A stretch of DNA of 60,342 nucleotides from NCBI GenBank assembly GCA_036505615.1, contig DASXTB010000111.1:1-60342 (forward strand), given 5' to 3'. The stretch's first letter is position 1, and each line of letters begins with the position of its first letter. Origin of the DNA: Acidobacteriota bacterium. Its GTDB lineage: Bacteria > Acidobacteriota > UBA6911 > JACQSX01. The notes beneath the pieces were generated by a model, which saw nothing but the letters and a program-made list of their open reading frames with translations, had not been told where the DNA came from and did not search any database. The position numbers were made by a program, and so were the translations under genes. Positions 342 to 56,741 of the stretch are shown one piece after another.

Positions 342-413
342 CACCCACACCCGGCACCCGAGACCCGGCACCCGAGACCCGACACCCGAGACCCGAAACC
401 CAAGACTCGAAAC
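342..413. repeat. heptamer array, C-rich arm only (CACCCGA/GACCCGA units)
   Basis: About 10 heptads of the GACACCC family abut the stop of the DASS gene (421-423). No complementary arm occurs inside the window. Confidence 0.85.
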
Positions 414-420
414 TTGGTTC

Positions 421-1893
421 TCACCACCATCCAAGCACCTTCCACCATGCAAATCCCACCGTCACCCAAATGAGAATATTCACCACCGACGCGCTCAATC
501 CCAGACGCCACCAGGTGCGCTGGCTGACGTAGCCTGCGCCGTAGTAAATCGGCGCCGGCGTGGTGCCATAGTGAGTCAGCGAAGCAGCCAGATTGGAGAA
601 ATACGCAAGCGATAACGCCGCCACATATTTCGGCGCTCCGGCTGTCAGTATGACGACCAAAAAAGGGAGATACATCGCCGAAGCGTGCGCCGTGATGCTG
701 GCGAAACCGTAGTGCGCGTAGAAATAAATCAGCAGCAACACTGCCAAAGCGCTCCACCACTGCCAGCCCACGGTGAGGCCGGCCGCCCGCTCGGCGAACC
801 ATCGGGTAATCCCCGTATCGCTCAGAGCCTTGGCCATCATCACCAGTCCGCCAAACCAGATAAACACGTCCCACCCCCCCCGTTCTGTTAGCACGTCTTC
901 CCACACCAGAACACCAGTGATCAGAAGCGAACAGATGCCCGCCAGCGCGATCACTGTATAGTCAATGGAATGCCAGGACCCGGTCATCCAAAGCAGCGTC
1001 AGTGCTGCGAAGACTGTCAGCATGATTCTTTCAGCCCGTGACATCGGGCCCAATCGATCCAACTCTGCTTTTGCAACCTCTGCCGCTCCGGGAGTATGCC
1101 GCACTTCGGGCGGAAAAAGCCGATAGATCAGAAATGGCACAAGCACTATGGAAAGCAATCCCGGCAAGAGCGCACCCAAGGCCCAATGGCCATAAGTAAG
1201 GTTGATGCCTGTGGCCTGCCGGGCGAACTTGGCGATCAAAACGTTCGAGGCCTGGCCTGTCAGGAACATGGCGCAGATGATCACGTCGCCCTGATACACC
1301 AGAGTCATCAAGAAGGCCCCCAGTCGTCCTGCCGTGGGTCCTGGCCTTGAGTCGTAAGCTTCAGCCAAGCTCTTGGTGATGGGAAAGGTGATGCCCCCAC
1401 AGCGAGCGCCATTGGAGGGGATGATCATGCCCAGCATCATGTCAGTGCAAACCAGAGCATAACCAAGACCGAGTGACGTGTGGCCGATGGCGCGAATAAA
1501 AAGAAAGGCGATGCGCCGGCCCAGGCCGGTTTTAATCATGCCGCGAGAAATGAAAAAGGCCGTCAGAGTAAGCCACGGAAGAGGGTCTGCATAACCGGCT
1601 AGCGCCTGTGCAGGAGACAATGTTCGCGTCAGAGCGATGGCGCTGATTCCCATCAGCACTACTGCGCCACCGGGCACAGGCTGAAGAATCAATCCCATGA
1701 TCGTAGCGACAAAAATTGCAAGCAGCCGCCACGACTCTGCTGTAATTCCGGAAGGGGCGGGCAAGAGCAGGATGGCGGAGGCGGCCAGCAGGACCCCGCA
1801 CCACTTGGCTAGGCGGATCACACCTGGGGTGAGGTGTATCGGTTCCGCCTTTCGACTCGGCGTCTCGGCTACCCGTGAAGGAATGTCATCCAT
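421..1893 (-). CDS. DASS-family anion:sodium symporter (2-oxoglutarate/malate-translocator-like permease)
   Basis: Long multi-TM ORF with DASS/CitT-like blocks (GLGRRIAFLFIRA, IIPSNGARCGGITFPI, SLTHYGTTPAPIYYG). Start moved from ORF-track 2325 to ATG 1893 (MDDIPSRV...) because the upstream 144 codons are repeat-derived and overlap the divergent gene. Confidence 0.85.
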   Translation of the reverse strand: MDDIPSRVAETPSRKAEPIHLTPGVIRLAKWCGVLLAASAILLLPAPSGITAESWRLLAIFVATIMGLILQPVPGGAVVLMGISAIALTRTLSPAQALAGYADPLPWLTLTAFFISRGMIKTGLGRRIAFLFIRAIGHTSLGLGYALVCTDMMLGMIIPSNGARCGGITFPITKSLAEAYDSRPGPTAGRLGAFLMTLVYQGDVIICAMFLTGQASNVLIAKFARQATGINLTYGHWALGALLPGLLSIVLVPFLIYRLFPPEVRHTPGAAEVAKAELDRLGPMSRAERIMLTVFAALTLLWMTGSWHSIDYTVIALAGICSLLITGVLVWEDVLTERGGWDVFIWFGGLVMMAKALSDTGITRWFAERAAGLTVGWQWWSALAVLLLIYFYAHYGFASITAHASAMYLPFLVVILTAGAPKYVAALSLAYFSNLAASLTHYGTTPAPIYYGAGYVSQRTWWRLGLSASVVNILIWVTVGFAWWKVLGWW

Positions 1894-1959
1894 ATTTGAA
1901 ACGCTCAAGCCCTGGCTGCTAGCAATGTTATTGACAATGACAGGCAGTACTAATATTAA

Positions 1960-2076
1960 GTCGATGTCGCGGTCGAAAGTCGAAAGTCGAAAGTCGAAAG
2001 TCCAAAGTCGAAAGTCAAAACTGCAAGCACTGATCTTGGACTGTGGACCTTGGACTTTGGACCTTGGACAACTGAC
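1960..2076. repeat. tandem-heptamer hairpin (GTCGAAA)n / (TTGGACC)n
   Basis: Left arm 1960-2021, 13-nt spacer, right arm 2035-2076. The arms are complementary except for about one position per heptad. Confidence 0.85.
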
Positions 2077-2083
2077 TACTATC

Positions 2084-2758
2084 ATGACTATATCAAACGC
2101 GAACTTGGACGCCTTACGCAAATTGAGTACTCCGACAGTAGCTAACGCCGTGGAGGTTTTCAATCTACGATCGCGCAGCGCCGGTTTTGCATCACCCGAA
2201 ATTCGCTGTCTTTTTCCCGATCTCGGCGTAATGGTCGGATTTGCCGCTACAGCCCGGTTTGCCGCTGAGCAAGCGCCGGCAAAAACAACGTCCCGATACG
2301 ATTTCTGGAAGTATGTCATGGGCATTCCGGAACCTCGAGTAGTGGTGATGCAGGATTTGGACCAGCCTCCGGGGATAGGCGCCTATTTTGGAGAAGTTCA
2401 ATCTTCAATCCACCGGCGCTTGCGTTGCGTGGGTGTGATAACCAACGGATTTGTGCGCGACCTGGATGAGGTGCGCGCATTGGGCTTTCAGTATTTCGCA
2501 GCCGGGGTGTGTGTTTCCCATGCTTACGTGCATTTGATTGATTTCGGCGGCCCGGTAAAGGTCGGTGGCTTGGTGGTTTGTTCGGGGGATCTGATGCATG
2601 CCGACAAGCACGGCGTGCTAAACGTCCCCAAAGAAGTAGCGCAGGATATTCCTGGGGCCGCGGCGCAAATCGCGCAACGCGAACAGCAGATCATAGCAAC
2701 CTGCAGTTCACCGGATTTTTCGCTGGAAAGACTGCGAGACGTGTACGAGTCGAAATGA
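2084..2758 (+). CDS. RraA-family protein (4-hydroxy-4-methyl-2-oxoglutarate aldolase / oxaloacetate decarboxylase type)
   Basis: 224-aa product from ATG 2084 (MTISNANLDALRKLSTPTVANAVE...). RraA-like blocks GEVQSSIHRRLRCVGVITNGFVRD and GDLMHADKHGVL. The part of ORF 1697.. upstream of 2084 crosses the repeat hairpin and the DASS gene. Confidence 0.8.
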   Translation: MTISNANLDALRKLSTPTVANAVEVFNLRSRSAGFASPEIRCLFPDLGVMVGFAATARFAAEQAPAKTTSRYDFWKYVMGIPEPRVVVMQDLDQPPGIGAYFGEVQSSIHRRLRCVGVITNGFVRDLDEVRALGFQYFAAGVCVSHAYVHLIDFGGPVKVGGLVVCSGDLMHADKHGVLNVPKEVAQDIPGAAAQIAQREQQIIATCSSPDFSLERLRDVYESK

Positions 2759-2763
2759 AAGTA

Positions 2764-2924
2764 GCCATCGGTCATCGGTCATCAGTCATCGGTCATCGGT
2801 TATTGCTAGGAGCTTCGGTCTTCGCAGATTGTTGTTCTGAGACATCTACTTACCGATCATATTTTTGAGAGATAACCAGTCACGATCGCCGATGACCGAT
2901 GACTGATGACTGATGACTGATGAC
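2764..2924. repeat. tandem-heptamer hairpin (CATCGGT)n / (ACCGATG, ACTGATG)n
   Basis: Arms 2764-2800 and 2875-2924, with a ~75-nt unique spacer. Confidence 0.9.
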
Positions 2925-2932
2925 TATTAGCA

Positions 2933-2967
2933 GGCTGAGAGCTGACAGCTGTGAGCTGAGAGCTGAA
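2933..2967. repeat. orphan heptamer array (GCTGAGA)5
   Basis: GCTGAGAGCTGACAGCTGTGAGCTGAGAGCTGA ends 3 nt before the ATG at 2970. The same unit recurs at 20008-20047 and 43532-43599. Confidence 0.85.
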
Positions 2968-2969
2968 TT

Positions 2970-3263
2970 ATGTTAACTCACATCGTCTTGTACAAGCCAA
3001 AGCCGGGCGTCGCAAGAGAGCAGATCGAAGTACTCTTGCGCGAGGCGCGGACGCGGCTTCGCCAAGTACCGGGCGTGGCCAACCTCAAGGCAGGAACCTC
3101 AATTTATAAGGAAGACCCTTATCAATGCGCTCTAGTAATGTACTTTGAAGATATTGCCGCGCTGGATCGATATCGCGTACATCCGGTTCATGTAAAGTTT
3201 GTCGAGGAAGTCGTCAACCCGGTAGTCGACGAAGTGCGACGATTGGATTACGTCGAAGAATAG
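2970..3263 (+). CDS. Dabb-family stress-responsive alpha/beta-barrel protein
   Basis: 97-aa ORF; the full length fits the Dabb pattern (THIVLYKPKPG ... YRVHPVHVKFVEE). Confidence 0.8.
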   Translation: MLTHIVLYKPKPGVAREQIEVLLREARTRLRQVPGVANLKAGTSIYKEDPYQCALVMYFEDIAALDRYRVHPVHVKFVEEVVNPVVDEVRRLDYVEE

Positions 3264-3270
3264 AAAAGAG

Positions 3271-3373
3271 GTCGTAAGTCGCAGGTCGAAAATCGAAAGT
3301 CAGGGGTCGCTCGGCCGAGGGCGAGCAAGGCTCGAAGGGTTGCACTTTCGACTTTCGACCTGCGACTTGCGAG
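3271..3373. repeat. tandem-heptamer hairpin (GTCGNAR)n
   Basis: Arms 3271-3304 and 3341-3373 are about 90 percent complementary; 36-nt spacer. Confidence 0.9.
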
Positions 3374-3394
3374 CTGAGACTAGGACAATCAGCC

Positions 3395-4450: not shown

Positions 4451-4629
4451 CGCGAGTCCAGTCTGCCATTTGTGAACCTCGCGCGCACCAAGGATAGACC
4501 GGACATTTCACTTCATACAATCAGCCGACATTTCCTCTTGCATACCATACTGCAAGGCGCTCTTGACATCTGTCTCGTATTGCGGTACTGAGTTTTATAT
4601 AGTGAATACGCCGAGACGACTTGGGGAAT

Positions 4630-5451: not shown

Positions 5452-5560
5452 TCGCCAGCGTTAAGAGGAGAAACATAACCTTCCATCACAGATAAGCCTG
5501 ATGCCCACCGGTGAAAGGGGAAGGTCGCCAAAAGAAGAGAAAATCTCGTAGGGAGGGACT

Positions 5561-18219: not shown

Positions 18220-18269
18220 TCAAAACACTGTGAAATCCCCCGCTTTCGCCAAAATTTGGGCGCTGAGCT

Positions 18270-18398
18270 CGATCACGTTCACGTTCACGAGCACGTCAAC
18301 GTCCACGACTACGACCAATCGAATCGTGAGCGATTGTGTATTCTTCGTCCGCGTAGGCATGGACGTGCTCGTGAACGTGGTCGTGATCGGCTTTTATT
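18270..18398 (+). terminator. long repeat-hairpin followed by U-tract (putative intrinsic terminator of the ligase gene)
   Basis: Arms 18270-18316 and 18356-18390 are complementary (CACGTT-type hexamer arrays). They are followed directly by CTTTTATT. Confidence 0.45.
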
Positions 18399-18461
18399 GG
18401 GTTGCGGCTTTGCCGACCCTATGGCCTTGGCGACTCTAAGCAAGATCATCTGGAGGAAAAA

Positions 18462-19940
18462 ATGATAGGACGTAGAAGTTTCTTGCAGAAATCGGCTTTA
18501 ACTCTGGGGGCCGTGGCGATGGAGAAATGGCCTCTTGCCACTGCTCAAAAATCCTCTGCCATGATCGGCATCCAAGTGGGAGCCATTTCGTTCCTAGACG
18601 AGGGCACCGGCAGGGTGCTGGATGGCTTTCAGGAAATGGCGGGAGTCAACACACTGTTCCTTGCGACATTCACTTACGGAAGAGGCATCGCCGGACGACA
18701 GCCTCGCCCCAATCCGCTTCCCGATCATGGCAAGCAGGAATACGACGACCAATTTCACGGAGGAAATTTCGCTACTCCGCATCCGCAATATTACCGCAAT
18801 ACCAGCATCCAGCCGGAGAAAGCGCCCGATCATCCCAACTACGACGTCATCGCCGACGTGCTGCCCGAGGCGCATCGCCGCGGGATGAAGGTGATCTGCT
18901 GGTTCGAGGATGTCTTTCGCAAGGATGTTGCCGGGGTAGACCAAGCCGTCGAGATCGATCTGCACGGCAAGCCGACGACACGCACCTGCATGCGCAACCG
19001 CAACGCGCGGAACTTCTGGCTTGGCCTGGCGGAGGATTATCTCCGTTCCTATGACATCGACGGCTTGATGTGGGGAAGCGAGCGGCAGGGACCGCTGAAT
19101 AATGCTCTGGGCTCAAGCCACGGGGGTGGAGCAAATCCGGCCAACGTGGGGTGTTTTTGCAATTACTGCCAGGAAGCCGCGCGTGAAGAAGGCATTAATG
19201 TTGATCGCGCGCGTCAGGGATATCTTGCGCTGGAGCGGTGGATCTCTGAAATGAAGAATGGCAGGCGTCCCACCGATGGCGCTTTCGTCACTTTCTGGCG
19301 CATTCTGGTGACTCATCCGGAAGTACTGGCGTGGGAGCGACTATGGAATAACGGCCTGCAGGATACTTATCGCGCGATGTACCAGCACGCGCGCTCCATC
19401 AAACCGGCAACACCGGTTGGCTGGCACGTCTGGCACAACAACTCCTTTTCGCCGTTGTATCGAGCAGAACAGGACTATAAGGAGTTCAGTAAATATTCGG
19501 ATTACCTGAAAGTCGTCATGTACAACAACTGCGGCGGTCCACGCATGGCTCAGTACGTTCGAAACGTCAATTCTACACTGTTTGCTGATTTAACACCTGA
19601 GCAGGCACTGGAATTTATCTATAGCGTGCAGCAGTACCCCAATGAAAAACGCCTGGGTCAAATCGCTCACGATGGACTGAGCGCCGACTATGTGCTTCGC
19701 GAAACACGTCGAGCTGTCGCGGGCGTCAATCCAAATGTGAAAATCTGGCCGGGAATTGACATTGATATTCCAACGGGCGCGAACGAAAAGAAGACGCAAC
19801 CAGATGACGTGTACCAAGCGGTGAAAGCAGCTTTTGCAGGGGGCGCGCAGGGAGTGATTCTATCGCGCAAGTATTCGGAGATGAAACTTGCCAACCTTCG
19901 AGCCGCCGGCCGTGCCGTGCGGGAGCTGAAACTGGCGTGA
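18462..19940 (+). CDS. Tat-signal hypothetical protein (possibly glycosidase-like TIM barrel)
   Basis: GGAGGA RBS, ATG 18462, twin-arginine signal GRRSFLQKSALTLGAV; 492 aa. No family recognised with confidence. Confidence 0.6.
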   Translation: MIGRRSFLQKSALTLGAVAMEKWPLATAQKSSAMIGIQVGAISFLDEGTGRVLDGFQEMAGVNTLFLATFTYGRGIAGRQPRPNPLPDHGKQEYDDQFHGGNFATPHPQYYRNTSIQPEKAPDHPNYDVIADVLPEAHRRGMKVICWFEDVFRKDVAGVDQAVEIDLHGKPTTRTCMRNRNARNFWLGLAEDYLRSYDIDGLMWGSERQGPLNNALGSSHGGGANPANVGCFCNYCQEAAREEGINVDRARQGYLALERWISEMKNGRRPTDGAFVTFWRILVTHPEVLAWERLWNNGLQDTYRAMYQHARSIKPATPVGWHVWHNNSFSPLYRAEQDYKEFSKYSDYLKVVMYNNCGGPRMAQYVRNVNSTLFADLTPEQALEFIYSVQQYPNEKRLGQIAHDGLSADYVLRETRRAVAGVNPNVKIWPGIDIDIPTGANEKKTQPDDVYQAVKAAFAGGAQGVILSRKYSEMKLANLRAAGRAVRELKLA

Positions 19941-19950
19941 GAAAGCTGAA

Positions 19951-19985
19951 GGGAGAAGGGAGAAGGGAGAAGGGAGAAGGGAGAA
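19951..19985. repeat. (GGGAGAA)5 perfect heptamer array
   Basis: 35 nt of exact GGGAGAA repeats, starting 11 nt after the stop at 19940. G3N4 pattern. Confidence 0.95.
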
Positions 19986-20007
19986 AGCGGAAGGCAGACA
20001 ACTGGTA

Positions 20008-20047
20008 GCTGGCTGAGAGCTTAGAGCCGAGAGCTGAGAGCTGAGCA
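20008..20047. repeat. (GCTGAGA)-type heptamer array
   Basis: GCTGGCTGAGAGCTTAGAGCCGAGAGCTGAGAGCTGAGCA. Not complementary to the neighbouring GGGAGAA array. Confidence 0.9.
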
Positions 20048-22394: not shown

Positions 22395-22416
22395 GTCAGC
22401 GCGTTCATCGCCATCC

Positions 22417-22693
22417 GTAGGGGCGGCTCGCGAGCCGCCCGTGTCCGCGAAGCGGCGCTATTGGAGAGACGCCCCGTGGGGCGTCTCCTGCACGATGAAA
22501 AATTGTGCGGGAGACGGCCCTCAGGCCGTCTCTCCAAAATGTCCAAACTCTAGGGTCCGCTTCGCGGACGAAGCCGTGGTTTGAAGCGCACTGCAGCATG
22601 AGAAAATGTAGAAACTCCAGGGGCGGCTCGCGAGCCGCCCGTCTCACAACGAAATCGGCATGCTCCGACGGGCGGTTCACGAACCGCCCCTAC
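22417..22693 (+). repeat. mosaic of stem-loop repeats (family A copy 2 flanked by GGGGCGG..CCGCCC hairpins and family C)
   Basis: Family A lies at 22444-22552. GGGGCGGCTCGCGAGCCGCCC occurs twice. AATCGGCATGCTCCGACGGGCGGTTCACGAACCGCCCCTAC (22653-22693) recurs at 57644-57684 with one mismatch. Confidence 0.9.
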
Positions 22694-22717
22694 AGCCGGA
22701 GTGGAAAAATCCGGCCC

Positions 22718-24005: not shown

Positions 24006-24294
24006 AGTCACACGTCAGCAAGTCAACAAGTCGCAAGTCAACAGGTTAGCAGGTTACAAGTTAGCAGGTTAGCAGGTTGGTAAGTCGAAGCTCGAAATGA
24101 TCTCCTCAAAGCTGAGTAAGCCCTTGCTTCTCGGCATCGCGAGGAGGAATTCTATCATGCTTAAACCCCGGACTATCAGGCGGAAGTGATGATGTGAAGG
24201 GTTACCTATACTGCCAAGTTTGCCAACTTGCGGAGCTGGAACCTGCCAACCTGCAACCTGTAAACCTATAAACTGGCAAACCCACAAACCTGCA
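24006..24294. repeat. tandem 7-8 nt repeat hairpin (GCAGGTTA / AAGTCAAC units)
   Basis: Left arm 24006-24092 and right arm 24211-24294 (AACCTGC-type units); ~120-nt spacer; imperfect complementarity. Confidence 0.8.
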
Positions 24295-24667: not shown

Positions 24668-25027
24668 TTTCGGGTTTCGGGTGCCGGGTGTCGAGTGCCG
24701 GGTGTCGGGTGCCGGGTGTCGGGTGTCGGGTTTCGGGTGCCGGGTGTCGGGTGTCGGGTATTGGGTGTCGGGTATTCGGTTTTGGGCTTAACGCCCTTCA
24801 GGTTATCCTAAACTTGGAACCCAACACGTGATTCAGCACCCAATACCTAAGACCCAATACCTAAGACCCAATACCCGACACCCGACACCCGGCACCCGAC
24901 ACCCGGCACCCGAAACCCGACACCCGACACCCGGCACCCGACACCCGACACCCGACACCCGGCACCCGAAACCCGAAACCCGACACCCGACACCCGACAC
25001 CCAACACCCGGCACTCGAGACCAATAC
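24668..25027. repeat. tandem-heptamer hairpin (GGGTGTC/GGGTGCC)n / (GACACCC/GGCACCC)n
   Basis: About 17 heptads at 24668-24786, a ~50-nt spacer, then about 27 complementary heptads at 24837-25027. It fills the whole gap between two minus-strand genes. Confidence 0.95.
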
Positions 25028-25783: not shown

Positions 25784-25947
25784 GGCTTATGCTTAGTATT
25801 GTGATGAATGATTCATCACAAGCTTCTCGAACTGAGATTCGCGAAGGTCCCACGGATGGCGTGTCGCCCAAATCCCCAGCTCGCCGAACGCGGGCGAAGC
25901 CCAGCACTTCAGTGCTTCAGAGTACAACCGACGTAGTTGCTGAGTCG

Positions 25948-26196
25948 ACCGCTCCGAAGGAGCGGCAGGAACATAGCCAGGGGTGAGCGCTGTTTGCGAA
26001 CCCCTGGACAACGGATCCAAAAATATCATGCCCGCCCCGACGGGGCGGGAGGAATCACCAGAGATGGCGGACTTACGAAAAGAATTTCCAGCCCCCCGCC
26101 CCTCAGGGGGCGGTCCCGATATTACTCCTCAAAACCAGGGGTTCGCAAAAAGCACTCACCCCTGGCTATGCTACGGCCGCTCCTTCAGAGCGGCTA
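25948..26196. repeat. MITE-like palindromic element (ATAGCCAGGGGTGAGCGC...type)
   Basis: Terminal inverted repeats GACCGCTCCGAAGGAGCGGCAGGAACATAGCCAGGGGTGAGCGCTGTTTGCGAACCCCTGG and CCAGGGGTTCGCAAAAAGCACTCACCCCTGGCTATGCTACGGCCGCTCCTTCAGAGCGGCT. Internal GCCCGCCCCGACGGGGCGGG and CCCCCGCCCCTCAGGGGGCGG hairpins. Confidence 0.85.
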
Positions 26197-26330
26197 GGCG
26201 CCGCGAAGCGGCGCTATTGGAGAGACGCCCCGTGGGGCGTCTCCTGCACGATGAAAGATTGTGCGGGAGACGGCCCACCGGCCGTCTCTCCAAAATGTCC
26301 AAACTCCAGGGCCGCTCCTTCAGAGCGGCT
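26197..26330 (+). repeat. family A copy 3, flanked by a duplicated 21-nt hairpin
   Basis: Family A sequence lies at 26200-26310. GGCCGCTCCTTCAGAGCGGCT is present on both sides (26175-26195 and 26310-26330). Confidence 0.9.
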
Positions 26331-26390
26331 GAGCCCGTGCGAAAGTAAGTCTTTGATCATCCGGGACTCTTCTGTGCTTAATGTACCCCG

Positions 26391-35345: not shown

Positions 35346-35470
35346 CGCCGCTCCGCGGCTCTCGGGTTTGGACATTTTGGAGAGACGGCCTGAGGGCCGT
35401 CTCCCGCGCAATCTTTCATCGTGCAGGAGACGCCCCACGGGGCGTCTCTCCAGTAGCGCCCGGTCCGCGG
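35346..35470 (-). repeat. family A copy 4 (inverted orientation)
   Basis: The reverse complement matches copies 1-3 along about 105 nt. Confidence 0.9.
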
Positions 35471-35557: not shown

Positions 35558-36667
35558 ATGGTTCACGAACTGCGGGCGGCCGTGATAGGCGCGACCGGCT
35601 ATTCCGGAAGGGAACTAGTGCGATGGCTGCAACAACATCCTGTGGCGAAGCCCGTCTTGCTCACCGGTTCCAGGAAAGCTTTGCCGGAGTTGCGCCGCTT
35701 TGTCTGCTCTCTTCCGGCCGATGTGTTTGTCCCGTTTCGGTACGGCGAGAATTTCCTTGAGGAGTTGCTGGATGTCGTCGCCCTCAGGAAGGTGGGCGTG
35801 GTGTTTCTGGCCACTGAGATTGAAAGTGCCGTGGGATTGGCACCCGAGCTCCTGCAGCAGGATGTGGTGGTGATCGATCTCAGTGCCGGCTTTCGTATAA
35901 AAAACGAGAAGCTCTACCGCGAATGGTATTCGCTGGTGCATCCGTGTCCCGAACTCCTGGAGCGAGCCGTCTATGGCCTGTCGGAATACCATCGGGAAGC
36001 AATCACCGCCGCCTCGCTGATTGCAAATCCGGGGTGTTACCCTACATCGGTTCTGCTGGCGTTGTTGCCGGCGCTCGAATTCATCGACTGGGAAGCGCCA
36101 GTGATTTGCGACAGCAAGTCCGGCCTGACCGGCGCGGGCCGGAACGCCGATTATATATTCGCCGAAATCAACGAAAACTGTCTGGCGTACAAACTGGGAA
36201 ATCATCGCCATATCCCGGAAATGCTTCAGGGCCTGGGCAAACCCGTGGGAGATGGAATTCCGTTCGTGTTCGCGCCGCATCTGGTTCCGATGAATCGGGG
36301 AATCCTCAGCACTTGTTATTTCCGCGCAAAAGTCGGCGTAAGCGAAGCCGGTTTGCGCCGGCAATATGAAGAGAAATACAAAGGGTCTCCCTTCGTCACG
36401 TTGCTGGCGCCGGGTGTGTTGCCCCAGGTTCAAATGGTGGCACATACCAATCGTTGTGAAATGGCGTTGTTTGTCCATGGCGATTCGCGCATGATGACGG
36501 TGGTTTCGGCTATCGACAACTTGGTAAAGGGAGCCGCCGGTCAGGCGATACAGAATATGAATATAAGGTTTGGGCTGGACGAGGCGGCCGGACTCACGGG
36601 AACGGCACTCGGTGGCCGGCAAGAGGGAGAAGGCAGAAAGCAGAAGGCAGAAAGCAGACGGCAGTAG
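35558..36667 (+). CDS. argC: N-acetyl-gamma-glutamyl-phosphate reductase
   Basis: [14 protein letters not shown], active-site [24 protein letters not shown] 35558; ORF-track codons upstream are REP-derived. The last ~15 codons and the stop lie inside a tandem-repeat array. Confidence 0.9.
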
Positions 36668-37025
36668 GAAGAAGGCAGGAGCCAGGAGGCAGGAGGCAGG
36701 AAGCAGGAGGCAGGAGGCAGAAGGCAGGAAGCAGGAGGCAGGAAGCAGGGTGCAGAAGGCAGAAGGCAGAAGGCCAGAGGGAGAAGGGAGAAGGCAGGCG
36801 CTAGAGATACTAAGTAGGATGCAATGGCCGGAACGCATAGTGGAAAGTGGCAGACAGGAACCGGAAAGCAAACTGCAAGATGTAACGCCCACAAACAGCT
36901 TCCTGCCTCCTGCTTCGTGCCTCCCGCCTTCTGCCTCCCGCCTCCTGTTTCCTGCCTCCTGCTTTCTGCCTCCTGCTTCCTGCCTCCTGCCTTCTGCCTC
37001 CTGCCTTCCGCTTTCTGCCTTCTCT
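36621..37025. repeat. tandem-heptamer hairpin (GGCAGGA/GGCAGAA/AGCAGGA)n / (TCCTGCC/TTCTGCC)n
   Basis: Left arm 36621-36800 (about 25 heptads), 96-nt spacer, right arm 36897-37025 (about 18 heptads). The argC stop (36665-36667) lies inside the left arm. The argB ATG is 11 nt after the right arm. Confidence 0.95.
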
Positions 37026-39626: not shown

Positions 39627-39649
39627 CACTTTGATGCGAGGTGCAGGTG

Positions 39650-39898
39650 ATGACTAGAACCATAACGATGAGGCTGGATGAGGAAACTTATAAGAAGTTG
39701 AAGGCTGCTGCGGCTGCCGAGCGGCGGTCTCTAGCAAATCTCATCGAGACTGCAGCTCTTCGCCATCTGGAAGATAGTGAGTTCGTCGATGATATTGAAA
39801 CGCGTGACATTCTTTCCGATCCTGATCTATTGAAGCGTCTCAGATCCGGACACCTCCAGGCAAGGAAGCGGAAGGGCGCCTTTGTCCGCGGCCTATAG
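39650..39898 (+). CDS. ribbon-helix-helix (CopG-type) antitoxin
   Basis: TITMRLDEETYKKLKAAAAAERRSLANLIETAAL is an RHH pattern. It overlaps the downstream RelE-like ORF by 17 nt. GAGGTG RBS before ATG 39650. Confidence 0.7.
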   Translation: MTRTITMRLDEETYKKLKAAAAAERRSLANLIETAALRHLEDSEFVDDIETRDILSDPDLLKRLRSGHLQARKRKGAFVRGL

Positions 39899-40166
39899 GA
39901 TTTTCGAGACTAAGCAGTTCCAGCGAGACCTGGAGAAATTGGGCCTTTCTGCCAGCCAGCGTATTCGCGAGAAGCTGCGCGGCCACGTTTATCCAGTTTT
40001 GGTCCAGAATCCATGGTTCGGCCCGAATATTAAGCGCCTTCGCCGTCTGGAGCCGTCGACATGGAGATACCGCGTCGGCCAGTGGCGCTTCTTTTACACA
40101 ATCGACGAAGAACAGAACACTGTATTCATGCTTGTTGCCGACAACAGAAGCAGCGCATACCGGTAG
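39882..40166 (+). CDS. RelE/ParE-family type II toxin
   Basis: 94 aa with the pattern ...NPWFGPNIKRL......WRYRVGQWRFFYTIDEE.NTVFMLVADNRSSAY, typical of the RelE/ParE fold. TTG start. Confidence 0.75.
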   Translation: MSAAYRIFETKQFQRDLEKLGLSASQRIREKLRGHVYPVLVQNPWFGPNIKRLRRLEPSTWRYRVGQWRFFYTIDEEQNTVFMLVADNRSSAYR

Positions 40167-40201: not shown

Positions 40202-41590
40202 GTGAACAGTTCTGTGTCTCTACCTCCTTGGAGAAATTGCCCCGGCGGCATCTGCGCGGCTCGAGGCTTCCTGGCCGCCGCTGAGCGCGCGGGTCTCAAG
40301 AAAGCCGGCCTCGATCTGACTATCATTGTCTCTGACCGGCCGGCCAGCGCCGCTGCCTGCTTTACGCGCAACCGCTGCGCGGCGGCGCCCGTCACGGTGA
40401 GCCGTGAACATTTGAAAAAAAACAAAGGCCGCGCTCGGGCGATTCTCGCCAATTCGGGCTGTGCCAATGCAGCCACGGGAGAACGGGGCCTGCAGGATAC
40501 CCGCTCCACCGTCGATGCGCTGGCAAGGAGCCTGGACCTGCCCCCATCCTCTATTTTGGTCTGCTCTACCGGGGTTATCGGTCTGCCGCTGCAGGCCGAC
40601 AGAATCATCGCAAAGCTTCCGGTCTGTGTCAGTCGCCTCAGCCGCAAACAGGCGAGGCGAGCGGCGCAGGCCATCGCGACAACAGATAGCGTCCTTAAGA
40701 TTGAATCTATCGCGTTTCAAGCCGCCAGCGGAGCGGTACGCGTTGGCGGCATTGCAAAGGGCGCCGGGATGATCCATCCGGACATGGCCACAATGTTGGC
40801 GTTCATCACAACCGACGCGGCGATATCACCGGCAATGCTGCAGCGGTGTCTGACCTGGTGCGTGGAGCGGTCGTTTAACTGCATCACCGTCGACGGCGAT
40901 ACTTCGACTAATGATACCGTCATCTTGCTTGCCAACGGCGCCTCTGGGGTTGAGGTTATGGAGGAACCAGCCAGCGGGCGGATAGACTCGCGGACACGGA
41001 GACACGGAGACACGGGGGCCATCGTCGCATCGCCGCGTCCCCGCGTCCCCGCGTCGCGACACTCCCTGTCGCCGCGTTCCCTTATCCCCGCGTCGAAGCC
41101 TGCCGTGTCGTCTCACCTCCAAGACCAGGTATGCGAGGACGACTTCCGCGCTGCTCTGCTGGAAGTCTGTCAGAGGCTGGCGCGAAAGATCGCGTGGGAC
41201 GGCGAAGGAGCGACCCATCAACTGGAAATCCGGGTTACCGGCGCTAGGTCTTTCGAGCAGGCAAGGAATGTCGGCCGTTCCATCGGCCGTTCGAATCTGG
41301 TCAAGACAGCCATTTACGGGCATGATCCCAATTGGGGACGGGTATTGAGCGCCGCGGGCGCGTCCGGTGAGCGCATTGACAGTTCGCGTGTCCAACTGGC
41401 GATCGATGGCCAAGTCGTAGCCGAAGGAGGAGTCTTAAAATACCTGCCTGATTCGGTTTTCACTTCGGTGTGGAAGAAGAAAAAAATTGAAATTGCGATC
41501 GATCTTGGCCTGCGTGACGCCAACGCCACCTGTTGGAGCTGCGACCTGTCGCACCAGTACGTCGATATCAACGCGAGCTACCGAACATGA
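40202..41590 (+). CDS. argJ: bifunctional glutamate N-acetyltransferase / ornithine acetyltransferase
   Basis: GMIHPDMATMLAFITTDA (self-cleavage site), DGDTSTND, DGEGATH, CDLSHQYVDINASYRT. Contains a repeat-derived in-frame insertion (see findings). Confidence 0.9.
   Translation: MNSSVSLPPWRNCPGGICAARGFLAAAERAGLKKAGLDLTIIVSDRPASAAACFTRNRCAAAPVTVSREHLKKNKGRARAILANSGCANAATGERGLQDTRSTVDALARSLDLPPSSILVCSTGVIGLPLQADRIIAKLPVCVSRLSRKQARRAAQAIATTDSVLKIESIAFQAASGAVRVGGIAKGAGMIHPDMATMLAFITTDAAISPAMLQRCLTWCVERSFNCITVDGDTSTNDTVILLANGASGVEVMEEPASGRIDSRTRRHGDTGAIVASPRPRVPASRHSLSPRSLIPASKPAVSSHLQDQVCEDDFRAALLEVCQRLARKIAWDGEGATHQLEIRVTGARSFEQARNVGRSIGRSNLVKTAIYGHDPNWGRVLSAAGASGERIDSSRVQLAIDGQVVAEGGVLKYLPDSVFTSVWKKKKIEIAIDLGLRDANATCWSCDLSHQYVDINASYRT
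40985..41116. repeat. 8-nt repeat arrays (GACACGGA)3 ... (CCCGCGTC)3 inside the argJ ORF
   Basis: CGGACACGGAGACACGGAGACACGGGGG at 40990-41018 and CGCGTCCCCGCGTCCCCGCGTCGCGAC at 41034-41060, plus CCCCGCGTC and CCGTGTCGTCTC further on. Partially complementary arms. Confidence 0.8.
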
Positions 41591-43461: not shown

Positions 43462-43464
43462 GAA

Positions 43465-43599
43465 GCTGCCAGTTCTCAGCTTTCAGCCAAGAAGCCCAGA
43501 ATCAAGCCCCTGGAGACGAATCTCATTGATAGGGCTGATGGTTGATGGCTGACATCTGATGGCCGAGAGCTGATGGCTGACAGCTGAGAGCTGAGAGCT
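43465..43599. repeat. heptamer hairpin with unequal arms (GCTGAGA/GCTGATG units)
   Basis: Short arm GCTGCCAGTTCTCAGCTTTCAGCC (43465-43488) is complementary to the long array at 43532-43599. That array abuts the ferredoxin stop. Confidence 0.75.
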
Positions 43600-45054: not shown

Positions 45055-45206
45055 TTCTCTAGTTTCAAGTTTGTATTTTGTCCCTTGTCACTGGACCGTC
45101 GCCATAAAGTGGTTTGCCTAGAGAGTCAGCTTTGCGCACAACGGGCTTCGTCCAGAGGTACAACGGACGACTGACCACTGACAACGGACAAAGTAAAACT
45201 CGGAAC

Positions 45207-45623: not shown

Positions 45624-45629
45624 ATTGAG

Positions 45630-46249
45630 TGTCAGTTGTTGGGTGTCGGGTATCGGGTGTCAGGTGACGGGTGTTGGGTGTTGGGTGTCGGGTGTCGGGT
45701 GTCGGGTCGAGTGTCGGGTGACGGGTATCGGGTGTCGGGTGACGGGTATCGGGTGTTGGGTGTCGGGTGTCGGGTATCGGGTGTCAGGTATCGGGTGTCG
45801 GGTGACAGGTCTCGGGTGTCAGGTATCGGGTGTCGGGTGTCAGGTAAGGGGTGACGGGTGTCAGGTGTCAGGTTTCGGGTGTCGGATGCATCAGTCACCG
45901 AAAAGACTCATATCAACAGATTGAAAGATGTTTGCCCAACACCCGTCACCCGATACCCGATACCCGTCACCCAACACCCGTCACCCGATACCCGTCACCC
46001 GACACCCGATACCCGTCACCCGTCACCCAACACCCGTCACCCGTCACCCAACACCCAACACCCAACACCCGTCACCCGATACCCGTCACCCGTCACCCGA
46101 CACCCGATACCCGTCACCCGTCACCCGTCACCCAACACCCGTCACCCGTCACCCAACACCCAACACCCAACACCCAACACCCAACACCCAACACCCGTCA
46201 CCCAACACCCAACACCCAACACCCAACACCTGACACCCAACACCCAACG
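45630..46249. repeat. giant tandem-heptamer hairpin (GGGTGTC family), about 36 + 45 units
   Basis: G-rich arm 45630-45885, ~50-nt spacer, C-rich arm 45935-46248. It occupies the entire ctaB-DUF420 intergenic gap. Confidence 0.95.
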
Positions 46250-47172: not shown

Positions 47173-47240
47173 GTAGATCTCTAGTTAGCGGCCGCCAATG
47201 AATGCGGGTCATAGAGGCGCGGCATCCCGCGTCTCTGGAT

Positions 47241-47550
47241 TTTGGACACTTATGCCTCCGCTGGGCTTGTCCCAGCAGAGCAGAAGATTGTTCACTAAAA
47301 GCGAAAAAACTAGAATTATCGGTCTCCACCGGCCTCGTGCCGGTGGAGACGAAGTTGATCACTATGGTTCGACGCTCCATTTCAAATTGCTGGCGATACT
47401 GCGCGCACTTTCACCAACAGGAGTCTGTGTTAGCAGGCAATCTTGGCTCCGCCGGAACAGGGCCGGCGGAGGCCGCCTTTTACAGACTCTCTGTTAGTGC
47501 ACAATCTCTCGCTCCGCTGGGACCAGCCCAGCGGAGGCGTTGTGTCACCG
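47241..47550. repeat. MITE-like composite with ~55-bp terminal inverted repeats (family E)
   Basis: GGACACTTATGCCTCCGCTGGGCTTGTCCCAGCAGAGCAGAAGATTGTTCACTA (47243-47297) matches the reverse complement of 47495-47550. A third copy lies at 59049-59106. Internal GGTCTCCACCGGC/GCCGGTGGAGAC hairpin. Confidence 0.8.
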
Positions 47551-47595
47551 TTACAGTGTCAGTACCACAGTGACACACAAACGCAATTGGGGGAA

Positions 47596-48588
47596 TTAAG
47601 TAGTCTGTTCCCAATTTCCATGGTCCCCAATTTCCATCATTCGGGTCCATTTGCGGCCAATGTTCGCCCCTGGGTATCGCCTGTGAATTCTCAAAGCGAG
47701 CAACAGTGCAGAGGCCAAAATGAGCGCGCCCAAAGCAACGTGAGCCGTAGAGCTCCAGACGTACTCGAAGATCGGCTGAGGAGCGCGCAAATTCTCCTTC
47801 TTGATAAAGAAGGTTGCCGTCCCCAAGAGTGCCTGGCCCACCACCAGACCCAGCAGAAAGAGCGAATGCCGATTCAGCTCGCCGGGGTAAAACCTTACCG
47901 TTATTACTGCAAGCCGCGCGGCCAACAGTACAACCACGGCAGCCCCGAGGATGTGCGAACCGATCCCCAAAGCATTATGCCGGTAGCCCGCGCCCAGTAT
48001 CAGCTGCGCGTAAACGGCAGCAACCAGGCAAAGGCTGATCCCACGAAGGCTGGGACGGTCTTCGGGATCCGTCTCAGACTGCTGGCCGGCCCACTTGTCG
48101 CCCGTTACCACCGCCGTAGAGATCGTTAGGCAAAAGAATGCCTGAGCCAGCGAAGCGTGGGCCATGGAAACTGCGGGCGGCAGGAAGTACAGTACGGTAA
48201 TTCCGCCCAGCAGCCCCTGTAGGATCACCGTAGCCATCGCCGTCCATCCGAGTCTGCGTACCCATCTGCGGGGCTCCTTCACTGAAATCCAGACTGCCAG
48301 TATGACGGTGAGCATTCCCACGAAAGCAGCAACCATGCGATGGCTATGCTCGTAGAGAACCCCGCCGGGCATCTCAGGCAACCATTTACCGAAGGAAAGC
48401 GGCCAATCTGGAACTGCAAGTCCGGCATCGTTGCTGGTCACAAGGCCCCCGGCGATGATCAAAAAGAAAGTGCAGACCGCGGTGAAGCAGGCGAAGCGGT
48501 GTAACGATTTCGGATTGCGGATTTCGGATTGCGGATTATTCGATTTCGGATTGCGGATTTCGGATTGCGGATTAAGTCGTGAAGGCAT
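47596..48588 (-). CDS. ctaA: haem A synthase (COX15/CtaA family)
   Basis: Eight-TM COX15/CtaA-type ORF (YEHSHRMVAAFVG, GAGYRHNALG). ATG 48588 (or TTG 48603). The first ~30 codons are the repeat arm (NPQSEIRNPKS twice). Confidence 0.85.
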   Translation of the reverse strand: MPSRLNPQSEIRNPKSNNPQSEIRNPKSLHRFACFTAVCTFFLIIAGGLVTSNDAGLAVPDWPLSFGKWLPEMPGGVLYEHSHRMVAAFVGMLTVILAVWISVKEPRRWVRRLGWTAMATVILQGLLGGITVLYFLPPAVSMAHASLAQAFFCLTISTAVVTGDKWAGQQSETDPEDRPSLRGISLCLVAAVYAQLILGAGYRHNALGIGSHILGAAVVVLLAARLAVITVRFYPGELNRHSLFLLGLVVGQALLGTATFFIKKENLRAPQPIFEYVWSSTAHVALGALILASALLLALRIHRRYPGANIGRKWTRMMEIGDHGNWEQTT

Positions 48589-48743
48589 TTGATTTGCTCT
48601 CAATTTCCATCTCCACTCGAACCGAACTTAAAGGAAGCTAGGCTAAAGTCCACAATCGATCAATCCGAAATCCGAAATCCGCAATCCGCAATTGGGCTAT
48701 CCGCAATCCGAAATCCGCAATTGGGCAATCCGCAATCCGAAAT
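48505..48743. repeat. tandem 7-8 nt repeat hairpin (CGGATTG/CGGATTT)n / (AATCCGC/AATCCGA)n
   Basis: Left arm 48505-48574 (inside the ctaA 5' end), ~80-nt spacer, right arm 48657-48743 (ends 4 nt before the cupredoxin stop). Confidence 0.9.
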
Positions 48744-48747
48744 GGAT

Positions 48748-49643: not shown

Positions 49644-49982
49644 GAGTTGCCGGTTTCTGGTCCCCAGTTGCCAGTTCCTAGTTGCCAGTCGCCTGTAATT
49701 TTGAAATCGGAACTACGGATCCATGATCTCACTGCAGAGGCGCAGAACCTGTAAAAGAATCAGAACCGCGCCCGTCAGGGCGCGTGCGGAGAATCTTTGT
49801 CAATTCCCGGCGCCTGCAAAACGCTTTGAACTGCCAGCAACTTAGAAAGTTTACGGCGAATCTTGTTACATTCTCCGCGCGCGCCCTGACGGGCGCGGTT
49901 CTGATTCTTGCTGTGGTTCTGCGGTGAATCGTACTACCGATTGCAAAGTTACAGGCAACTAGGAACTGGAAACTGGCAACTG
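49644..49982. repeat. nested double palindrome
   Basis: Outer arms 49644-49703 and 49944-49982 (CAGTTGC/CAGTTCC units). Inner inverted repeat 49742-49803 / 49862-49922 is about 60 nt and highly similar; each copy carries its own GCGCCCGTCAGGGCGC hairpin. Confidence 0.9.
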
Positions 49983-49984
49983 TT

Positions 49985-53203: not shown

Positions 53204-53277
53204 CGTTTCCTAGTTTTGAGACACTCTTCAACAAACTGCGTCTGTCCAAGTGACCTGGGCAGGCATGAAATAGAATA

Positions 53278-54222: not shown

Positions 54223-54232
54223 TTTCAGTCTC

Positions 54233-55159: not shown

Positions 55160-55164
55160 AAGAC

Positions 55165-55276
55165 TGCAGGTTGCAAAGTTAGCAAGTTAGCAGGTTCGCA
55201 AGTTAACAACTTGGCACGTTAGGGGTCTCTGGCTCGCGGACCTGCTAACTTGTTAACCTGCAAACCTGCAAACAAG
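55165..55276. repeat. tandem 7-8 nt repeat hairpin (GCAGGTT/GCAAGTT units)
   Basis: Arms 55165-55215 and 55240-55276, located between the Rieske stop and the cytochrome b start. Confidence 0.85.
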
Positions 55277-55278
55277 AG

Positions 55279-56175
55279 CTAAGCCGGCAAAAATGCTCCT
55301 GGATCGTGAAACTCCGAACGGCTGCCTTTGGGCCACTGATATAACTTGGCGGTGTCCACTTTAATCTGGCCGTCTGCGTCCAACTCGATCCTCGCCCGAT
55401 CCATGGGACGTGGCGCCGGTCCCTCAAAATTGATCCCTTCGCTGTCGTAGCCGCTTCCGTGACAGGGGCATTTGAACTTGTTTTCGCTTGCGATCCAATC
55501 GGGAGTGCAGCCAAGGTGCGTACAACGCGCATAAATAGCAAAGATCCCTTCAGAGGTGCGCACTACCCAGATGCGATAATCTTTCTGAAACTTGGTATCC
55601 ACGCCAAAACCAAAGTCGGAAGGATATCCAATTTTGAACACAGTCTTTGGCTCGAACAAGACCCTGGGGAAAAAGAAGCGCGCAAACATCACCAGATTCG
55701 TAGCTAGAAAACCGAAGACGCAGGTTACGGCAAATCTCCGCCGCCGCATCAGCCTTGCTTCAGACTCGATTACCTCCGGTCTCTTGGGAATCTCTACAGC
55801 GGGGGCGGGAGGCTTGGCGGCAGCAACCGTTTTGGCGGGAACGGCAGGTGGTGCGGCCGCGGCCGGGCGGGGCGCCACCGGCGCGGGGGAAATAGCGGCG
55901 GGCGTAGCCGGAGTGGCGGAGCCGGGTCTCCCTTTCCACACCTTGGGCTGCTTTCGTGGCTTCTCGCCTGCCGGCGCGCCTTCGGATGCAGGTGTTGCCT
56001 CCGCAACGGCAGGGGTTTCCGAAGCCGCGGGCGCGTCGGCCTGCGCATCGGAGGACGCGGCAGGGGGCGTGGCGGCGACCGGCGCCGGAGGGCCACCGGC
56101 TGCGCGCGGCGGCCACGGTCTCGGTTGTTTTTTTGGTTTGTCCTCAGGCTTTTGCGGAGTATCAGGGTCAGACAT
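55279..56175 (-). CDS. Rieske 2Fe-2S subunit with long Pro/Ala-rich N-terminal extension
   Basis: CTHLGC...CPCHGS Rieske boxes; RRRRF Tat-like motif followed by a TM helix. About 140 aa of low-complexity P/A/E-rich sequence precede this. Confidence 0.9.
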
Positions 56176-56530
56176 ATTTGTTCAAAACCTCACCTTTTCC
56201 TGCGTCAGGAGATTTCGTTGTGACCGAGTCAGTCTTTGTTCGCTTGGAACTGCTTTCATGCAGCGCAAACATTCCACCGACGATTTTTGTGGATTTGGCG
56301 GAGCGGGATCGCGTTTCCTCCCATCGGTGTCCCGATAGGCAAATGGCGGGTGGTCATCATGTCTGAAGATATAAATTCAGCCTGCAGTATCACCTTCGGT
56401 CGATTGCCTCCAGACCTTCGGTGGGTCACACAGATAATTAAGGTGCCCGGCGATCCAACCACTTCTATTCCACATCGTTGCAGTGGATACGGCTTGGTTT
56501 TACTTCTATGACAGCACAAAAGTCAAGATA

Positions 56531-56741
56531 GTCCGTTGTCCGTTGTCAGGTCGCAGGTAGCAAGTCGCAGGTCGAAAGTCGCAAGTCGCAGGTCGAAAGT
56601 CGCAGGTCGAAAGTCGATTGGCTGGCGTTTGAGTGGGAACCCACGAGTGAAATTTGAAAATTGGATTTAGAGCTTCCCACTTTCGACTTTCGACTTTAGA
56701 CCTTCGACTTTCGACCTTCGACTTTCGACCTTCGACTTTCA
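56531..56741. repeat. tandem-heptamer hairpin (GTCGCAG/GTCGAAA)n / (CTTTCGA/CCTTCGA)n
   Basis: Left arm 56531-56616 (starts with GTCCGTT x2), ~60-nt spacer, right arm 56678-56741, ending 12 nt before the stop of the CMD-like gene. Confidence 0.9.

Follow-up and report, generated by a model that had tools for sequence, protein, structure and literature searches.

The window analysed here, a 60,342-nt stretch from an Acidobacteriota bacterium (GenBank assembly GCA_036505615.1, contig DASXTB010000111.1), carries 14 to 15 long stem-loops, each made of two reverse-complementary runs of a short tandem unit flanking a spacer. According to Pfam, its gene content is that of an Acidobacteriota, with TonB-type receptors of the CarboxypepD_reg and OMP_b-brl_4 families, and its nearest relatives are Acidobacteriota metagenome-assembled genomes. 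Further genes include an argC-argB-argD...argJ cluster, aconitase and a minus-strand respiratory cluster, which comprises a Rieske protein, cytochrome b, a multihaem cytochrome c, a CarboxypepD_reg protein, ctaA, ctaB and DUF420. Most of the longer gene-to-gene gaps are occupied by long stem-loops whose arms consist of complementary units of seven bases, and the occupied junctions include five in the respiratory cluster as well as argC-argB.

Arrays were detected with Tandem Repeats Finder and, independently, with a lag-identity scan. Short-unit arrays were found at all the positions proposed in the original prediction, which had been made by reading the sequence, and nearly all were of period 7 in the lag-identity scan. 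After merging of overlaps, 31 arrays with periods of 5 to 9 remain (24 of period 7, four of period 8, two of period 6 and one of period 5), spanning 2.1 kb in total. In 30 second-order Markov simulations, by comparison, a mean of 0.47 arrays was obtained, with a maximum of 2 and not a single inverted pair. Pairing was established by direct sequence reading, with an inverted-repeat finder and by folding. It holds for 14 of the loci proposed, to which one unlisted locus (45055-45206) is added, and the sizes of these hairpins range from 80 to 625 nt. The proposal of at least 16 hairpin loci was therefore right about the arrays, which are real everywhere, and too high for the hairpins, since the arrays at 342-413, 2934-2966 and 19939-20045 are unpaired. 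Like structures are carried by six contigs from independent assemblies or metagenomes (L001, L161, L163, L164, L167 and L168), and the arrays are thus not an assembly artefact. Folding of the intergenic regions gives z-scores of -6 to -30 wherever lag-7 identity is high. Other gaps of the window are equally structured without any periodicity, owing to a 117-nt repeat resembling MITEs (miniature transposable elements with inverted repeats) and to small GC-rich palindromes, so that extragenic palindromes are generally abundant in this genome. No match to Rfam at the gathering score and no tRNA were found in the window.

The elements fit very tightly between genes. A hairpin starts 2 to 11 nt past a stop codon and ends 3 to 13 nt ahead of the next start codon, so that the gap is wholly filled. 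The Pfam gene map bears out the placement first described, between co-directional genes, within operons and in one divergent region (1972-2069), and extension into coding sequence is seen at the tail of argC and in an insertion of ~40 codons in argJ. Of nine genes abutted by a hairpin, only one has kept a Shine-Dalgarno motif, whereas the motif is present in 14 of the 23 others (Fisher P = 0.018); the abutted start regions include those of the genes at 2970, 18402, 23992(-), 24659(-), 37036, 45054(-), 45623(-) and 55159(-). The DUF420 orthologues of two hairpin-free relatives (L165 and L166, described below) do possess the motif.

The largest hairpin (45629-46245, minus strand) fills the ctaB-DUF420 gap with 37 and 44 heptamers of the GGGTGTC family, separated by a spacer of 49 nt. 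Its minus strand has a folding energy of -511 kcal/mol, and its arms are 75 to 82% complementary in any register. Between the CarboxypepD_reg gene and ctaA, the hairpin at 48506-48743 (minus strand) has TTGCGGA/TTTCGGA units in both arms, together with higher-order duplications of 36 and 29 nt, one kind per arm. A 345-nt near-perfect palindrome is found at 49645-49982 (minus strand; -190 kcal/mol, z -15.7), in which periodicity is restricted to an outer stem of CAGTTGC-type heptamers, the inner ~170 nt being an ordinary long palindrome. An octamer-armed hairpin (55166-55273, minus strand; GCAGGTTG/GCAAGTTA and ACCTGCAA; z -6.3) separates the Rieske and cytochrome b genes, and another hairpin (56531-56740; -91 kcal/mol) lies upstream of the Rieske gene, with arms of ten GTCGCAG/GTCGAAA and nine ACTTTCG/ACCTTCG units. 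The locus at 45055-45206 (minus strand), missing from the original prediction, is a small hairpin between DUF420 and a HEAT gene, with about two CTTGAAA-type units and a lag-7 identity of 0.47; its orthologue in the relative L161 contains five to six such units. Directly 3' of a gene for a 104-aa ferredoxin-like protein, between convergent genes, a minus-strand hairpin is formed by AGTTCTCAGCTTTCAGC and GCTGAGA-type units; one of its arms is located upstream of the start first proposed (43532), and the whole element extends over 43464-43599.

Two further minus-strand hairpins are located at 24006-24294, between Zincin_1 and MFS genes (units of 7 to 8 nt, GCAAGTCA/GCAGGTTA and AACCTGC), and at 24670-25022, between SDR and Zincin_1 genes (about 15 and 26 units, GGGTGTC with GCC and TTC variants; -295 kcal/mol). 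The plus strand has a comparable series. The argC-argB hairpin (36624-37023; z -15.9) has arms of 25 GGCAGRA and 15 to 17 TCCTGCC units, and the last codons of argC are encoded by its left arm. A small octamer hairpin (40984-41057; three GACACGGA units and CGCGTCCC) is situated in the argJ open reading frame (ORF), where the Pfam ArgJ match is broken into two by an extra low-complexity loop of ~40 codons that contains the hairpin and is absent in the relative L001. This additional loop (40957-41148) reads …SGRIDSRTRRHGDTGAIVASPRPRVPASRHSLSPRSLIPAS…. Between argD and argJ, at 39641-40166, lies a toxin-antitoxin pair made of a ParD-like (ribbon-helix-helix) protein and ParE; a heptamer hairpin occupies that junction in L001.

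The remaining hairpins lie in the first third of the window. In the divergent gap between a symporter gene (-) and an RraA-like gene (+), the element at 1972-2069 combines seven GTCGAAA and five CTTGGAC units, complementary at 6 of 7 positions (-42 kcal/mol, z -4.5, lag-7 identity 0.61). The RraA-like/Dabb junction contains, on the plus strand, a hairpin at 2766-2925 (five CATCGGT and five GATGACT units, 90-nt spacer) whose G·U pairs favour the plus, or sense, strand, and then the unpaired GCTGAGA array at 2934-2966, which ends 3 nt short of the Dabb ATG. At 3271-3381, between Dabb and Ldh_2 (plus strand; -66 kcal/mol, z -8.3), arms of GTCGTAA/GTCGCAG/GTCGAAA face arms of TTTCGAC/TTGCGAC. A hexamer hairpin at 18258-18416 (plus strand, stem 18265-18401), with arms of CACGTT/CACGAG/CACGTC and their complement, is followed by a terminator-like GGCTTTTATTGGG; the TTTTATT found there makes it the only hairpin of the window with a T-run 3' of it. 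The other unpaired arrays comprise about ten CACCCGA/GACCCGG heptamers, the reverse complement of the GGGTGTC family, at 342-413, just 3' of the stop codon of a Na/sulfate symporter at 421 and with no partner within 700 nt, and two adjoining arrays at 19939-20045 (plus strand; five GAAGGGA and five GCTGAGA units, mutually non-complementary), between the unk512 ORF and homoserine dehydrogenase.

The composition of the arms contains a record of their history. Minor variants of the unit are common to both arms of a locus and differ between loci of one family: GTC, GCC, TTC and ATT variants are present on both arms at 24670-25022 (cosine 0.97), and GTC, ATC, GAC and GTT variants on both arms at 45629-46245. 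The order of the variants is not mirrored between arms, and higher-order periods (14 to 36 nt) are arm-specific, as with the 36 and 29 nt of 48506-48743, which indicates that arms expand independently after sharing variants. Elements may also be nested, as seen for the palindrome at 49645-49982 and for a copy of the hexamer hairpin in the relative L164. In six of seven large hairpins at co-directional junctions, among them 24670-25022, 36624-37023, 45629-46245, 48506-48743 and those at junctions J1 and J3 of L161, more units are found in the arm on the side of the upstream gene than in the one on the side of the downstream gene.

The first reading of this DNA overstated the diversity of units in assigning a different one to each locus, as a small number of unit families reappear at different loci, in related genomes and in phage contigs. 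At least eight families can be distinguished, and G3 tracts are found only in GGGTGTC. GGGTGTC itself occurs at three window loci and in L161, GCTGAGA at three loci, GTCGMAR at four and GCGGAWT at six loci over three genomes. Altogether, 35 pairs of loci have units within one mismatch of each other, when 8.7 are expected and the maximum in 300 trials was 17. The G-rich arm is the 5' arm in 36 of the 43 hairpins that could be scored (window and loci L001 to L191, same-species duplicates removed), or in 15 of 20 when unit families are counted (P = 0.04). Since an inverted repeat reads alike on both strands, this polarity is independent of gene direction. It may, speculatively, reflect avoidance of exposed C-rich, G-poor RNA on which Rho would load: an emerging G-rich arm would at once sequester the C-rich arm that follows, while the opposite order would expose hundreds of nucleotides. 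A coding reading was considered for period-6 arrays only. In one frame, those made of CACGTC/CACGAC (L161 12040-12620, window 18265-18308) would specify dipeptide repeats rich in His (HVHVHEHV…), and those at L161 12040-12620 overlap small called ORFs.

The most recent changes can be read from three contigs of the same species, L163, L167 and L168 (JGI metagenome 3300036862), which align over 17.0 kb and are 99.4 to 99.9% identical to the window. Between them and the window, 14 substitutions were counted, along with three small indels (7, 8 and 14 nt). All three indels are changes of whole units within an array, although arrays amount to just ~6% of what was compared (P about 2e-4 from position alone). 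The 7-nt indel, at 2947, is the sole indel in 9.1 kb of alignment with L168, the GCTGAGA array at 2934-2966 being exactly one unit apart; the other two set the window apart from L167, by one 8-nt unit in 24006-24294 (left arm) and by one 14-nt double unit at 24838-24875, within 24670-25022. The 238-nt hairpin at 48506-48743 is unchanged in L163. Two larger differences were excluded from the indel count, as they could be true alleles or short-read assembly collapse: L163 lacks the interior of the largest hairpin (567 nt, 45652-46218, against L163 3172-3174), keeping ~60 of 617 nt, and L167 (99.4% identical) lacks a 437-nt composite palindromic block (25899-26335) that contains one MITE-like copy and is flanked by a TTCGC direct repeat.

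Close relatives were reached only by protein search, the best identity being 64% in the scan of contigs for ArgJ and 61% in that of metagenomes for CtaB. The nearest, L161 (GCA_030157145.1), with a CtaB 88% identical, is syntenic over 41.8-49.6 kb at ~80% nucleotide identity; 16 arrays were counted in 15 kb of it, and the junctions that bear hairpins in the window bear them there too. Its ctaB-DUF420 hairpin is of the same family, with a length of 272 nt, and is dominated by GTCAGGT where the window has GTTGGGT/GACGGGT. At the junction of CarboxypepD_reg with ctaA (J1), TTGCGGA/TTTCGGA in the window corresponds to ATGCGGA in L161, on both arms in each case, with a few units of the old type left in L161. 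The two arms having changed together, a unit substitution must have spread over both. The unit family itself differs 3' of the ferredoxin-like gene, where flanks align up to the stop codon, and a GCTGAGA-type hairpin in the window faces a GCGGATT-type hairpin in L161. The L161 orthologue of 49645-49982 has kept the gene-proximal heptamer arm only, and a DDE_Tnp_1 transposase gene (L161 69-2039) stands in place of the distal arm.

Further away, L164 (CtaB 75%) has a hairpin of CACGGGGAA units downstream of ctaB, and a near-copy of the hexamer hairpin is nested inside it. This copy and the window element at 18258-18416 have in common a stretch of 44 identical nucleotides and the tail GATCGGCTTTTATTGGGTTG, in unrelated genomic contexts. 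The arrangement at window 2891-2966, a GATGACT array with AGCTGAC behind it, also has a counterpart in L164, where the surroundings are likewise different. L165 (CtaB 69%) and L166 (66%) have kept the gene order and contain no array at all: only 21 to 27 nt, including a Shine-Dalgarno site, separate ctaB from DUF420, and there is an 8-nt overlap of ctaA with ctaB. In L001 (ArgJ 64%), argC and argB abut, and GCGGAAG- and GCGGAAT-type hairpins are found at other junctions. As these junctions of L165, L166 and L001 are compact or abutting, the elements are gains within a sub-lineage. Variation in unit number and presence or absence between relatives, both of which had been predicted, were thus found.

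Contigs from soil Acidobacteriota contain 15 inverted pairs in 658 kb. In many of them a hairpin is placed directly 3' of ctaB with unrelated arms, belonging to a GTAAATG group with varying copy numbers, to CCTGAAA x8 or to GGTTTAG, or being the non-periodic GACAAACTTTAGTTTGTC. In other phyla, 11 inverted pairs were counted in 1.37 Mb, mostly in a few contigs of Chloroflexota, Planctomycetia and Gemmatimonadota. Two phage contigs that encode portal, capsid and terminase proteins, chosen by their GGGTGTC/GGTGTCA units (L170 = IMGVR_UViG_3300043331_002813; L186 = IMGVR_UViG_3300037195_001448), have heptamer hairpins between structural genes. L170 contains 14 arrays and four pairs in 13 kb, other units of the phage contigs are TTCGACA, AATCCGA, TGGATAG and GTAGTGGA, and (GACACCC)n runs are found directly upstream of several phage start codons.

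The original prediction was not aware of any described class of paired inverted arrays. One is on record, however: each Xanthomonas genome was reported to have 70 to 75 pairs of GGGAATC heptamer arrays in convergent orientation, and their potential for stem-loops or cruciforms was noted (Rehm et al. 2015, PMC4692102). In related species those pairs have the same neighbouring genes but differ greatly in length and sequence; the arrays form G-quadruplex (G4) structures in vitro and have no known function (PMC4692102). The likeness lies in non-coding heptamer arrays placed on opposite strands in close proximity. The Xanthomonas system, however, uses a single G4-prone unit genome-wide, mostly in about four copies, whereas here at least eight families, mostly without G-tracts, build arms of up to 44 units, fill operon junctions wholly and reside in an Acidobacteriota host. 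Our full-text searches found no description of such a version in Acidobacteriota, with several unit families, hairpins as long as 625 nt and filled operon junctions, the only related reports being Rehm 2015 and MacGregor 2015. What is new here is therefore this version of the paired heptamer array, in an Acidobacteriota lineage and in phages. The Beggiatoa TAACTGA repeat set has one inverted example. Long simple-sequence repeats with units of 5 to 11 nt are dominated by heptamers in many bacteria, according to the accounts of Mrazek 2007 given in PMC4679880 and PMC4692102, which also mention an intergenic bias, a sporadic phylogeny and a proposed origin by slippage. They share with our elements the head-to-tail units and the instability of unit number, but they are described as direct arrays, not as inverted pairs. 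The parallel first drawn with the short tandemly repeated repetitive (STRR) sequences of cyanobacteria does not fit, because gene content and relatives are those of Acidobacteriota and no STRR unit is matched. STRR units (CCCCAGT and others) belong to cyanobacterial hosts.

In architecture and dynamics, the closest known elements are REPINs, which are hairpins of two inverted repetitive extragenic palindromic (REP) arms around a short spacer, intergenic, multicopy and devoid of target-site duplications (Bertels & Rainey 2011, PMC3116915). The present elements likewise have two inverted arms around a spacer, an intergenic position, many copies and evolution within the genome, and no target-site duplication was found for them. 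A REP arm, in contrast, is one conserved palindromic unit of 20 to 40 nt associated with a REP-associated tyrosine transposase (RAYT), while the arms described here are made of tandem units of 6 to 9 nt with no consensus between families. For this reason, classical REP sequences and bacterial interspersed mosaic elements were rightly set aside from the start. [quoted passage not shown] In the construction of arms, the closest likeness is with eukaryotic foldback transposons. Those of the FB type in Drosophila have long inverted arms of short tandem subrepeats, unequal in length, with a unique loop and a variable size. They are eukaryotic, kilobase-scale and associated with a transposase, and we take the likeness as an analogy of architecture only. 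Internal sequence common to several copies, as in a MITE, is seen for the hexamer hairpin (window and L164) and not for the spacers of other loci. A resemblance to intrinsic terminators also exists, as stem-loops are found at gene ends, with a U-tract at 18258-18416 and, at 43464-43599, between convergent genes where a terminator is expected. As a general reading it was rejected: stems are 10 to 30 times longer, the other hairpins, read in the sense direction, have no U-tract (ends CTTACAAAAAAG, AACTGACACTCAAT), and many are within operons. The exclusion of canonical intrinsic terminators thus holds, except for 18265-18401.

The reading that we favour, with a probability of about 0.55, is that of lineage-specific, dispersed foldback repeats, comparable to REPINs or MITEs, whose arms behave like microsatellites with units of 7 (also 6, 8 or 9) nt. 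Gain and loss by whole units, concerted change of both arms and lineage-specific gain are directly observed in the comparisons above; recurrence and relocation of unit families are well supported but not proven. Arms may expand by replication slippage in steps of 7 nt, and exchange from arm to arm would maintain their complementarity, candidate processes being quasi-palindrome template switching and recombination between inverted arms. Both are established in E. coli. Seeds of a few families would have spread non-autonomously, in the manner of REPINs or MITEs, and would be tolerated only in the space from a stop codon to the start codon that follows. Because many elements lie within operons, they are probably transcribed, on the evidence of their position, and would give long RNA hairpins in which the G-rich arm comes first. 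On the messenger RNA, where their effect is most likely, they would replace the downstream Shine-Dalgarno region, uncouple cistrons and supply double-stranded RNA for processing or for protection of 3' ends. We regard such effects as a by-product rather than as a demonstrated selected function, the direct evidence being on how the elements evolve.

Several points weigh against this interpretation. Dispersal relies on two or three inter-genome cases and on the recurrence of families, which could itself result from a sequence bias of expansion. No target-site duplication or conserved terminus was found when window loci were folded with their flanks, which merely lengthened stems spuriously, and the empty sites of L165 and L166 are too diverged to locate an insertion point; one possible 7-nt direct repeat, AACTGAC, surrounds 45629-46245, is absent in L161 and has no equivalent at other loci, element boundaries being fuzzy. 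Apart from the hexamer hairpin, no spacer or other non-repeat sequence is shared among window loci and relatives, and no transposase or RAYT gene was detected among the 59 ORFs of the 60-kb window scanned against Pfam. Copy numbers taken from short-read assemblies are unreliable. The persistence of a hairpin downstream of ctaB, with differing units in distant Acidobacteriota, fits a selected structure at least equally well. Lastly, strand asymmetry of G·U pairs, tested over 32 hairpins, gave a null result (19 favouring sense and 13 antisense, P = 0.38): six sense-favoured cases were seen in the window alone, and the effect vanished over the full set. Transcription-coupled deamination would confound this test anyway.

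A stronger version of the dispersed-repeat reading, which is possible and which we put forward only tentatively, would make these elements a distinct foldback class actively colonising the intergenic gaps of the lineage and of its phages. Insertion would depend on a hairpin or on single-stranded DNA and leave no target-site duplication; inflation by slippage, broken translational coupling and replacement of the Shine-Dalgarno region would then follow, and G-first polarity would stem from transcription (Rho avoidance) or from the insertion mechanism itself. An explanation of another kind, which we judge unlikely yet worth weighing closely, is that the hairpins are selected RNA elements: a stem-loop would be useful in the polycistronic transcript, as a candidate RNase III site, barrier to 3'-end decay, cistron insulator, protection against Rho or bidirectional terminator between convergent genes, and arrays would simply be how such stems mutate. 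The ctaB-downstream hairpin speaks for it, being shared by the window with L161, L164 and no fewer than 15 contigs of distant Acidobacteriota from soil, with a conserved position and an arm sequence that turns over, as does the one convergent-gene gap filled by a different family in the window and in L161. Exact stop-to-start placement with loss of the Shine-Dalgarno motif would also agree with it, as would the G-first polarity if Rho avoidance is its cause, and the largest hairpins fold far better in the sense direction (-511 vs -447 kcal/mol, with 28 vs 4 G·U pairs). This sense preference does not extend to the 32 hairpins, however, and L165 and L166 cope with compact or overlapping, hairpin-free junctions. 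Unit changes are compensatory on both arms, but template switching between arms accounts for this without selection, and arms that are just 75 to 82% complementary in any register, unpaired arrays, an intragenic copy and a U-tract in one element only count against it.

It is also conceivable, if improbable, that everything is a local mutational by-product, ordinary palindromes being converted in place by 7-nt slippage and template switching, to which the replication and repair machinery of this lineage would be unusually prone, with no movement between loci; recurring units would then result from a sequence bias of that process. Such a process would agree with the abundance of heptamers, the commonest long simple-sequence repeat in many bacteria in the accounts given by PMC4679880 and PMC4692102, with unit-step indels between strains and with unpaired arrays. 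The low density of pairs in other phyla points the same way, and phage contigs show the same pattern, as if a host process marked the DNA resident in the cell; near relatives without arrays would then suggest a switch in a host factor. What such a process leaves unexplained is the presence at unrelated loci of two genomes of a near-identical element, including its non-repeat tail, and of the GATGACT + AGCTGAC composite, as well as unrelated families in one orthologous gap and exact units, such as GCTGAGA, at three unlinked loci. We find a function at the DNA level very improbable. Protein-binding repeats, cruciforms or G-quadruplexes would serve chromosome organisation or modulate replication or transcription, and (GGGTGTC)n does fit a G3-N4 quadruplex pattern, like the G4-forming GGGAATC; both strands show the same G-first polarity whatever the gene direction, and three units make 21 bp, or two helical turns by our own arithmetic. 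Nevertheless, G-tracts are absent from most families (GTCGAAA, GCTGAGA, CATCGGT, GCAGGTTA, GCGGATT), for which reason G-quadruplexes were discarded as an explanation for the whole set; the fast turnover of units speaks against a sequence-specific binding protein, and the elements avoid nothing save coding sequence. The chance of an assembly artefact is negligible in our view. Short-read assemblers do mishandle repeats, and L163 lacks 567 nt of the largest hairpin, but the same structures recur in at least six independent assemblies or metagenomes, relatives and phage contigs, and three hairpins are base-for-base identical or one unit apart between assemblies.

For work on the 7-nt unit and on the origin and role of long heptamer repeats in bacteria, the present lineage offers an extreme and tractable case, with dozens of hairpins per 100 kb, strain-level polymorphism of unit number, joint turnover of arms and close relatives free of arrays. 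The contrast between array-rich and array-free genomes makes the cause, be it a replication or repair factor, a mobilising enzyme or a phage vector, testable by comparative genomics, and since the elements lie within operons, their consequences for Rho, for translation initiation and for the processing of messenger RNA can be tested by mapping transcripts. In practice, short-read assemblies break or collapse at such elements, and spurious ORFs and wrong start codons result from them.

Other repeats are present in the window. The 117-nt MITE-like element, internally palindromic, has four copies that are 93 to 96% identical (103-219, 22445-22561, 26201-26316 and 35366-35470). Its core reads TTGGAGAGACGCCCCGTGGGGCGTCTCC...GGAGACGGCC...GGCCGTCTCTCCAA, and the motif GAGACGCCCC..GGGGCGTCTC is also found within a hairpin loop of L161. 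The gaps at 47173-47595 (ctaA-ctaB) and 22404-22706 are crowded with small GC-rich, REP-like palindromes, for example GGGGCGGCTCGCGAGCCGCCC (two exact copies and one diverged) and CTCCGCYGG..CCRGCGGAG. Near the end of the window, a perfect 24-nt repeat is present twice at 57302-57349, and direct repeats of AGCAGACTAACTCCG (three to four copies) are followed, within 59985-60311, by two copies of a 119-nt unit that are 98% identical.

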